A stretch of 9,284 bases of DNA from a virus (IMGVR_UViG_2671180524_000015); one strand, 5' to 3'. Shown: positions 7,518-9,077, counted from the stretch's first letter. The notes: generated from the letters alone by a model not told the origin. Numbers and translations are program-made.

Positions 7518-8180
7518 TCAGACAAAACCGGCCGCCTTCCGGCGCTCATATTCCTGTTTCAGCAATTCAATTGGCGTTGGCCCTGGCGGGCGTTTGGGTG
7601 CTGCCAGTTGTCGCCGGACTGGCGGAACACTGAGGCCATTACCAACATGCTTTGCCCATTTCGTCAGCTGCCTTTCCACAAGCCGTTTTAACTCCCCTTC
7701 GGTCATCTGGCGCTCAATCCCCTTTGAACGCATCTCGAGGCAAATGTGGTACAGCACCGGCTGTGGCCACGGGTATTTATCACTCCCGTCGTACCGCCAG
7801 GATTCATTCCTCCAGCGACGGTACTCCTCCATCACGGCATCCACCGTCAGGCCAAATGGATTTGCCCCGCTCTCCGAAATCAACGCCACAAACTCAGCCA
7901 GATCCGGAGGCCACGTTTCACCCGCCCGGCAGCGGTCCATGCACTGACGGCAGACCTGCCGGATTTGCTGTTCAGTCATCGCGCCAATCTGAGCAATCCA
8001 GAGCTTCGACGGCGCAGCCCCGTTCTTCTGGGTCCAGCGGTTCGAATACACCTCCCCCATAAGTTCCCACAGCTTCCAGGCCGTTTCCGTTGCTGATAAA
8101 TCCGTTTTCACGTTCCCACTGTTCACGTGCTGCCCGAATTTCCTGAACTGCCCGTGATGCGGTGCCACCTGGTGCTGCAT
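7518..8180 (-). CDS. Replication protein P-like (putative helicase loader), 220 aa
   Basis: ATG at 8180-8178 with AAGGGGGT Shine-Dalgarno. The central and C-terminal parts (..[52 protein letters not shown]..) resemble my recollection of lambda P (..PSPGQFVAWCREEA..YPWKSNAHYWLV..). Size is close to lambda P (233 aa). Confidence 0.5.
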
Positions 8181-9009
8181 GGCTTACCCCCTTGCTGACT
8201 GGTTTTACCTGTGCCCTGACGTGCTGCACGTGACGGGCAAATTTCTGCTCCCACTGAACCTGCGTGAAAACCTTCCCCTCCGCCATCCAGTAATCCCGGA
8301 ATGCGGCAAGCTCAGCAGGTGTAAACTCAGGCTCAGGCAGAGCCATACCCCACACTGCTGCCCGCTGTCGAAAATCCGGCGACGGTTGCCAGACTCCAGT
8401 CATCGGAAATTTCCCGATCGGTTCGCTCAGGCCGTCCAGGTATTCAGGTTCGGCTGTCTGCAACGACGCGTCATTCAACTCACCGGTCGTAGCACTCTCG
8501 CGCATGCGCGCGTTATGTGTGGGGTTTAATTCTTTATCTGTATCTGTATCTGTCGTGATTTGTCGTGACATATGCGTGACGCGTCGTGACTCATCGTGAC
8601 AATCAGTGTTCTGCTTCCGCAGTCTTTCCCGCTCCCGCTGCGCTCTCTTGCGCTCTGCCGGGGATTTTGCGGTTTGCGAAACATTACCGTTATCCTCCTT
8701 CATCACCTGGCGTTTTTCCCATCCGGAAATAAGATCACCATCCAGAACTCGCCCCTGCATTGCATGCAAAATTGAATCAATCACGTCTTCCGTCACATCA
8801 AGCGCACTTGCTAAATCTTCCGTCGTGACATCAATGTGACCACGTAGTGACACGCCGTGACATGTCGTGACATTTCGTGACGCACTCACCAGAAGGTGGA
8901 TATACACCGCCATCACTGTTGCGATTGGCTGTCCTGAGACCCTGGCAATGGTTCGCCATTTGGGATCATTTGGCATGTCATGCCACAATCTGAGCCAGGC
9001 ATTAGCCAT
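7972..9009 (-). CDS. Replication initiator (O-like) candidate containing its own iteron arrays, 345 aa as called
   Basis: ATG at 9009-9007 with AGGTGA upstream (the ORF-track GTG at 9015 has no ribosome-binding site). N-terminus MANAWLRLWHDMPNDPKWRTIARVSGQ resembles phage replisome-organiser N-domains from memory. Two CGTGAC iteron arrays lie inside the gene and a P-like gene follows. The last ~70 codons overlap the P-like gene out of frame, so the true 3' end is uncertain. Confidence 0.5.
   Translation of the reverse strand: MANAWLRLWHDMPNDPKWRTIARVSGQPIATVMAVYIHLLVSASRNVTTCHGVSLRGHIDVTTEDLASALDVTEDVIDSILHAMQGRVLDGDLISGWEKRQVMKEDNGNVSQTAKSPAERKRAQRERERLRKQNTDCHDESRRVTHMSRQITTDTDTDKELNPTHNARMRESATTGELNDASLQTAEPEYLDGLSEPIGKFPMTGVWQPSPDFRQRAAVWGMALPEPEFTPAELAAFRDYWMAEGKVFTQVQWEQKFARHVQHVRAQVKPVSKGVSHAAPGGTASRAVQEIRAAREQWERENGFISNGNGLEAVGTYGGGVFEPLDPEERGCAVEALDCSDWRDD
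8553..8599. repeat. Iteron array 1: five CGTGA(C/T) repeats at 10-11 bp spacing
   Basis: Repeat starts at 8553, 8563, 8574, 8584 and 8594; immediately preceded by (ATCTGT)x3 at 8535-8552. Confidence 0.6.
8825..8882. repeat. Iteron array 2: six GTGAC repeats at 10-11 bp spacing
   Basis: GTGAC starts at 8826, 8837, 8848, 8858, 8868 and 8878, mostly in the context TCGTGACA. Confidence 0.6.
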
Positions 9010-9077
9010 ACTCACCTCATCTGATACCGAACTTTACCCTCGAACATCCGGAAGAAATCCGGCATGAATATTGTTGG

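Follow-up and report, generated by a model that had tools for sequence, protein, structure and literature searches.

Two arrays of a short, helically phased repeat inside the replication initiator gene of a lambdoid prophage are very probably, judging from comparative analysis, the sites at which the protein encoded by that same gene binds to start phage DNA copying. They are likely to be the iterons of a phage origin, in which the internal array (array B) and an adjoining A+T-rich tract would form the core and the N-proximal array (array A) would play an auxiliary role. The window, i.e. the whole stretch of 9,284 nt that was analysed, is 100% identical to a lambdoid prophage of Escherichia coli O157:H7, whose neighbours are tRNA-Ser and mtfA and whose integrase gene is split by IS1203 in strain PV15-279. 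The early-right operon is on the minus strand and runs from a Cro-like gene through a YdaT-family gene (from 9078), the initiator gene, the P-like loader gene and a DUF1627 gene, and further on to Q. The features of interest are the following.

7518-7979, minus strand: lambda-P-like helicase loader gene (Pfam Phage_lambda_P, PHROG 109, RefSeq)
7972-9009, minus strand: replication initiator gene (ORF and translation, 345 aa)
8520-8553, no strand: A+T-rich tract adjoining array B, the proposed unwinding element
8554-8601, minus strand: array B (internal), five repeats, gene nt 410-455
8792-8796, plus strand: single inverted core, GTCAC on the plus strand, in coding GAC GTG ACG (D-V-T)
8824-8882, minus strand: array A (N-proximal), six TGTCACG-type repeats, gene nt 129-185

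The loader gene, which shares 8 nt with the end of the initiator gene, matches Pfam Phage_lambda_P (3.4e-16) and PHROG 109 'P-like helicase loader' (5.5e-54), and is named 'replication protein P' in RefSeq. The initiator is listed in RefSeq as a DnaT-like ssDNA-binding domain protein (WP_001262409) and is laid out as an N-domain (~aa 1-100), a basic helix (aa 117-137), a disordered linker and a DnaT-like C-domain (aa 193-267). This C-domain is matched by Pfam DnaT PF17948 (1.4e-17, 63.6 bits) and by the DnaT C-domain chains in the PDB (6aep, 4ou6) at ~1e-19 to 1e-20, the best at 3e-20. The initiator is not a full-length DnaT orthologue, a candidate that could be ruled out since the match is restricted to the C-terminal ssDNA-binding domain; the NCBIfam DnaT equivalog gave 93 bits versus a cut-off of 201. 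The N-terminal 160 residues match PHROG 3729/1408 'replication initiation protein', the initiator also matches PHROG 4880 'replisome organizer' at 1e-4, and 'phage replisome organizer' is the name used by NCBI for this type of N-domain. At normal thresholds, Pfam returned the DnaT domain alone, and at E up to 10 the N-half was matched by Phage_rep_org_N (PF09681) alone, weakly (E=0.014, 15.8 bits, below the cut-off of 23.3). Homology to lambda O was rejected, with no match to Pfam Phage_rep_O either at normal thresholds or at E up to 10, and because of this the term 'O-like', by which the gene had been introduced in the preliminary description, is valid by function and position and not by homology. 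In the AlphaFold model (pLDDT 65 overall, 80-90 in the core), the N-domain is moderately confident and displays three helices, a low-confidence loop (46-60) and a helix-turn-helix followed by a beta hairpin (63-93), C-terminal to which come the basic helix and a disordered tail. When this N-domain model was searched against the PDB with Foldseek, no significant structural match was obtained (best E 0.3), and because the weak matches are mainly to winged-helix regulators the fold is called here just probably winged-helix.

The (C)GTGAC-type repeats are eleven in number, all on the same strand and all within the initiator gene, and because this gene is on the minus strand the unit reads TGTCACG in the coding sense. 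In array A, which encodes ASRNVTTCHGVSLRGHIDVT, the plus-strand GTGAC cores are found at 8825, 8836, 8847, 8857, 8867 and 8877 (spacing 11, 11, 10, 10 and 10). In array B, which encodes DCHDESRRVTHMSRQITT, a part of the disordered linker, they are found at 8555 (a degenerate GTGAT), 8565, 8576, 8586 and 8596 (spacing 10, 11, 10 and 10). CGTGAC is exact in 8 of the 11 repeats, the other three being CGTGAT, TGTGAC and AGTGAC, and array A lies ~229 bp upstream of array B, in the same orientation. The preliminary description had reported these eleven phased repeats in two arrays, with coordinates that prove right to 1-3 nt, and had also pointed to an (ATCTGT)x3 repeat encoding TDTDTD, which is indeed present at 8536-8553, within the A+T-rich tract, as (ACAGAT)3 in the minus-strand coding sense. 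It did not contain the inverted core, which represents a twelfth copy 33 nt downstream (coding sense) of array A. This inverted copy keeps the core alone, the flanking bases of the unit not being kept, and its Val codon is GTG in all 21 homologues that have Val at this position.

The region reaches its lowest G+C (0.35) at 8510-8559, the tract of the window being just ~65% A+T. Array B and the tract correspond to linker aa 137-163, at the joint between the N- and C-domains. In terms of the AlphaFold model, the low-confidence loop is encoded by array A and the disordered tail by array B with the hexamer repeat, so that the repeats occupy segments in which the protein can tolerate an imposed sequence. 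The array B repeat nearest to the tract (8554-8560) is mutated in the window to ATCAC in the coding sense (Val to Ile), the sole exception among 25 genes of the GTCACG class. Because of this mutation in the tract-proximal repeat and of the broken integrase gene, the origin copy in this prophage may be weakened, perhaps decaying. No promoters or terminators were predicted within either array. Just past the tract there is a GC-rich palindrome, CGCGCATGCGCG (8499-8512), on which three overlapping terminator-like calls were made (8496-8524, antisense strand); it does not look conserved, because its peptide differs in L003 and L005.

Chance does not readily generate such a pattern. CGTGAC is found 15 times in the window versus 3.9 ± 1.9 expected, a count reached in 0 of 200 shuffles, and 8 of these 15 copies fall in the 330 nt of the array region. 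In 2000 windows simulated with a first-order Markov model, GTCAC copies spaced 9-12 nt apart never formed chains of more than three: the maximum was a single copy in 1905 windows, two copies in 94 and three in one, versus the 6 and 4 observed. Synonymous re-coding of the same protein (20,000 trials) yielded 2.0 ± 1.3 cores, with a maximum of 8 and a longest chain of 4, as opposed to the 10 cores and chain of 6 in the actual gene.

Homologues, which were drawn from phage records, E. coli genomes and one genome per species, show that the arrays are a property of a family rather than of one prophage. Both GTCACG arrays are found at the same two places in 31 of ~58 homologous genes from gamma- and beta-proteobacterial (pro)phages (in Escherichia, Shigella, Pseudomonas, Aeromonas, Bordetella, Serratia, Chromobacterium and other genera), at gene nt ~129-160 and ~387-420, mostly 226-230 nt apart. 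Of 5426 complete E. coli genomes, 642 contain the array-bearing segment, which can reach four copies in a single genome. In 12 diverged homologues CGAACGC replaces GTCACG in both arrays, at the same places, and GTAACG does so in 5 others, a class that is not crisp since one of its clades mixes GTAAC and GTCAC cores in both orientations. Array A is not recognisable in 8 of the ~58 homologues, and because these do without it array A is not essential to the family.

Comparative demonstration that the repeats are under selection at the DNA level came from synonymous sites in 25 GTCACG-class genes of <90% nucleotide identity, with 67 conserved-residue columns as background. The major-base fraction at third codon positions was 0.98 inside the cores versus 0.56 elsewhere (Mann-Whitney p=2e-6), with core codons fixed as GTC (24/24), GGT (25/25), CAC (24/24) and TCA (25/25), and with synonymous sites outside the cores near saturation. 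The base preceding the core (T) and the one following it (G) are fixed as well, which gives TGTCACG as the unit. The CGAACGC class behaves in the same way, with values of 1.00 in the cores versus 0.60 elsewhere (p=1.5e-5). In both classes this is the opposite of the outcome named beforehand as speaking against function, namely a loss of the repeats through synonymous change in homologues that keep the protein. Such frozen synonymous sites amount to selection on the nucleic acid, and the identity of the binder is not given by them. At the protein level, the array A peptide tracks the unit: GTCACG in three frames gives V-T, x-H and S-R (ASRNVT..RGH..VT), and CGAACGC gives N-A, E-R and R-T (SNATERGRT).

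The number of repeats varies around fixed positions. Array A has six copies in the window versus four in most relatives (range 4 to 6 or more), the two extra repeats being an exact 21-nt insertion of 7 codons (TCHGVSL) within the low-confidence loop of the model, at residues 48-55. Array B has 3-5 copies in homologues, at the same place, and another 21-nt block differs between it and the Pseudomonas and Aeromonas versions. In the window versus its relatives, indels have in this way a length of 21 nt, corresponding both to two helical turns and to seven codons. A hugely expanded array A was seen in L034 (Pseudomonas sp. JAI111), where it encodes GITCHDMSRENVTNVTFVTCHEINL (codons ~45-85); the array A loop therefore tolerates many extra repeats. 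In L044 (Sphingomonas sp.), both arrays encode the peptide ETTGNAGVTQG (codons ~47-57 and ~140-150), which suggests duplication or gene conversion between the two.

The neighbour of array B is conserved too. The tract that follows this array is A-rich, of the form AGATAAAGATAAAGAT and (GATAAA)n-like, with ACAGAT repeats in the window. Among 38 homologues, 36 have the lowest-G+C 30-nt window of the whole initiator gene at this tract, between -10 and +40 nt relative to the end of the array (0.31 versus 0.56 for the whole gene). Synonymous sites are fixed in its GAT AAA GAT codons, whereas elsewhere Asp is preferentially encoded by GAC, and its DNA motif is kept where the reading frame differs, e.g. 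in L016. The number of its hexamer/dodecamer repeats varies among E. coli prophages.

The sole constant companion of the arrays is the N-domain, since the C-domains and the helicase/loader partners differ between homologues. A DnaT-like C-domain and a downstream P-like loader are found in the window, a DnaT-like C-domain and a downstream DnaC-like loader in Aeromonas pAEv1818, an O-like C-domain and a downstream primase-helicase in Pseudomonas phita81A, a DnaD-like C-domain with no adjacent loader in phage Evi, and a Phg_2220_C C-domain in protein P0081 from a metagenome assembly. The module joints are at the A+T-rich tract (~8531-8553): the 89% nucleotide identity with Rac-type ydaU genes is limited to 7903-8550 and the 84% identity with Evi-type genes to 8531-9018. 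The suggestion made from the window by itself, that the repeats are candidate iterons of an origin inside the initiator gene, gains further support from three sides, i.e. the joint switching of the unit in both arrays, the A+T-rich tract and the constancy of the N-domain. The alignment gave no clean rule in the form of a residue code that would tie the wing or the basic helix to the class of unit.

What is expected of an iteron origin is a set of at least three short direct repeats in helical phase, an adjoining A+T-rich tract and DNA-level constraint with co-variation between repeats and initiator. The window has five and six copies at 10-11 nt, the tract adjoins array B, and the constraint is accompanied by co-variation with the N-domain lineage of the initiator. 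A model can be outlined in which the N-terminal DNA-binding domain of the initiator would bind the repeats in its own gene, array B and the (GATAAA/ACAGAT)n tract forming the core of the prophage origin. Initiator molecules would occupy one site per helical turn; the bound domains would therefore lie on one face of the DNA, an arrangement suited to cooperative oligomerization and bending. Oligomerization of the bound initiators would distort the DNA and open the A+T-rich tract, after which the C-terminal DnaT-like domain might hold the ssDNA and/or bring in the P-like loader with the host DnaB. Array A, presumably bound by the same domain, would be auxiliary, through looping, cooperative loading or autoregulation.

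Of the alternatives, the one that survives best, which we nevertheless regard as unlikely, retains the initiator as the protein that binds the arrays and assigns these, array A above all, to control, by autorepression, a transcription roadblock, titration or handcuffing (pairing between the arrays or between co-resident prophages). Control iteron arrays in the P1, F and R6K plasmids work by such control. A control function would fit a location of array A 129 nt into the initiator's own coding region and far from the A+T-rich tract, its absence from eight homologues, its variable copy number (4 to 6 or more) and the presence of up to four copies of the module in one E. coli genome. However, in being directly adjacent to a conserved A+T-rich tract array B is exactly like an origin core, and control and initiation can coexist, the two being inseparable by sequence in the case of array A. 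We would similarly give a low probability to array A having a role beyond that of spare sites. It might be a distinct control element, from which the bound initiator would loop to array B, ~22 helical turns away; such looping would couple initiator synthesis, origin firing and the cross-talk of up to four co-resident prophages with the same unit. Another possibility is that the protein loop encoded by array A helps to read the repeat, in which case the same nucleotides would specify both site and reader, neither of which could change without the other.

It is very unlikely that the repeats bind another protein than the initiator N-domain, be it a host factor or another phage regulator. Although the structural search with the N-domain gave no significant DNA-binding match, the unit changes with the N-domain lineage across hosts that span gamma- and beta-proteobacteria, and loci with identical units differ in their upstream and downstream genes and in their C-domains; a host factor would, moreover, leave the switching of the unit between classes unexplained. 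Hardly credible, finally, is the notion that the arrays have no function as DNA sites and are a by-product of a repetitive peptide, of slippage, of recombination at joints or of an mRNA signal. It is true that the region is a mosaic joint and that its hexamer repeats are prone to slippage and differ in number from one prophage to another. However, the synonymous-site and covariation tests already contradict this notion (synonymous sites are frozen in the cores only and both arrays switch unit together), a repetitive peptide is ruled out as the cause because the 10-11 nt period is out of frame, leaving the peptide aperiodic, and random re-coding of the protein removes the repeats, and an RNA element is ruled out by unremarkable mRNA folding (z -1.2 and +1.0) and by the lack of a match to any Rfam family.

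The proposed origin, in which array B and the A+T-rich tract would be the core, can be compared with several known systems. SPP1 oriL, which is embedded in gene 38 and is sufficient for in vitro replication (PMC5737612), is made up of an A+T-rich unwinding element and, next to it, short direct repeats to which the organizer binds (PMC5737612, PMC6316719). When read from the sequence, gene 38 (L062) was found to contain, in mid-gene at 7944-7981, four GACA(C/G) repeats spaced by exactly 11 nt, with GATAA in the A-rich tract that comes next, an arrangement that resembles array B and its tract in that phased repeats and an A-rich tract lie inside the gene of the organizer. Some relatives of the window's N-domain carry a Phg_2220_C C-domain, the family (pfam09524) to which G38P has been assigned (PMC5737612). 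However, the N-domains are without detectable similarity, homology to G38P not having been detected by profile comparison (hhalign E 0.85), and the second SPP1 locus, oriR, is intergenic and ~13 kb away, whereas the second array is here ~230 bp away in the same gene. A distant second origin like oriR was not found in the complete 40-kb genome of phage Evi, which has no same-orientation phased arrays beyond the two inside the gene.

In lambda and Stx phages, ori lies in the O gene (PMC7466680). The likeness extends to an origin placed between a DNA-binding N-half and a partner-binding C-half of the initiator, to module joints at the origin, to an A+T-rich tract coming after the iterons and to a downstream gene for a P-type loader (PMC7466680). 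Stx-phage origins with six iterons have been described, and changes in iteron number in steps of two add residues in both cases, 13 aa in Stx phages (PMC7466680) and 7 aa here. There are, however, two arrays here versus one in lambda, the C-domain is DnaT-like and the initiator is not an O homologue. Lambda iterons are ~19 bp long with internal dyad symmetry, whereas the unit here is an asymmetric 7-bp direct repeat, present once per helical turn, and the earlier remark that the unit and the two-array layout depart from lambda was therefore correct. P1 (incC/incA), F, R6K and P4 (ori/crr) likewise have one initiator-binding repeat in two separate arrays within or near the initiator gene, an origin array being accompanied by a second, control or enhancer, array. 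In these replicons the rep gene is flanked by the arrays or separated from them by kilobases, and the initiators are of the RepA/Pi/alpha type, whereas here both arrays are coding sequence. The YdaU-YdaV module of the Rac prophage, which we take to be the oriJ replicon, shares with the window the DnaT-like C-domain and the P-like partner (89% nucleotide identity) as well as a KDTDTD-coding A+T tract at the domain joint. In contrast, YdaU has a DUF1376 N-domain, and no 10-11 nt phased arrays were found in its gene. At CDS nt 427-458 of L008 (Rac-SA53 ydaU), an inverted repeat, GTTCAAACA..TGTTTGAAC, was observed just before the KDTDTD-coding A+T tract, and this is perhaps the corresponding site in the Rac replicon.

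An origin inside a phage initiator gene is of a known kind, very probably represented here by a widespread family. No description of the repeats or origin of this family was found in the searchable literature, and an earlier prediction elsewhere is possible. The candidate replication site, the unit, its specificity classes and a predicted unwinding tract are hereby mapped for lambdoid EHEC prophages that are not of the lambda type, and prophages of various gamma- and beta-proteobacteria contain related modules. In EHEC, virulence genes are known to be mobilised by regional replication and by interactions among prophages (PMC2669165), and co-resident prophages that share a unit would be expected to cross-activate or interfere with one another. 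The arrays also exemplify overlapping constraints, the putative binding sites setting the peptide of a loop and of a linker. Beyond E. coli, the initiator module was seen beside a DnaB-like primase-helicase in two 50.9-kb circular P. aeruginosa 'plasmids', CP137943.1 (L063) and CP124671.1, both of which are lambdoid phage genomes deposited as plasmids; plasmid replicon typing of CP137943.1 returned no type. Many database proteins of the initiator family are labelled 'partial', which suggests that draft assemblies break in the repeated initiator gene.
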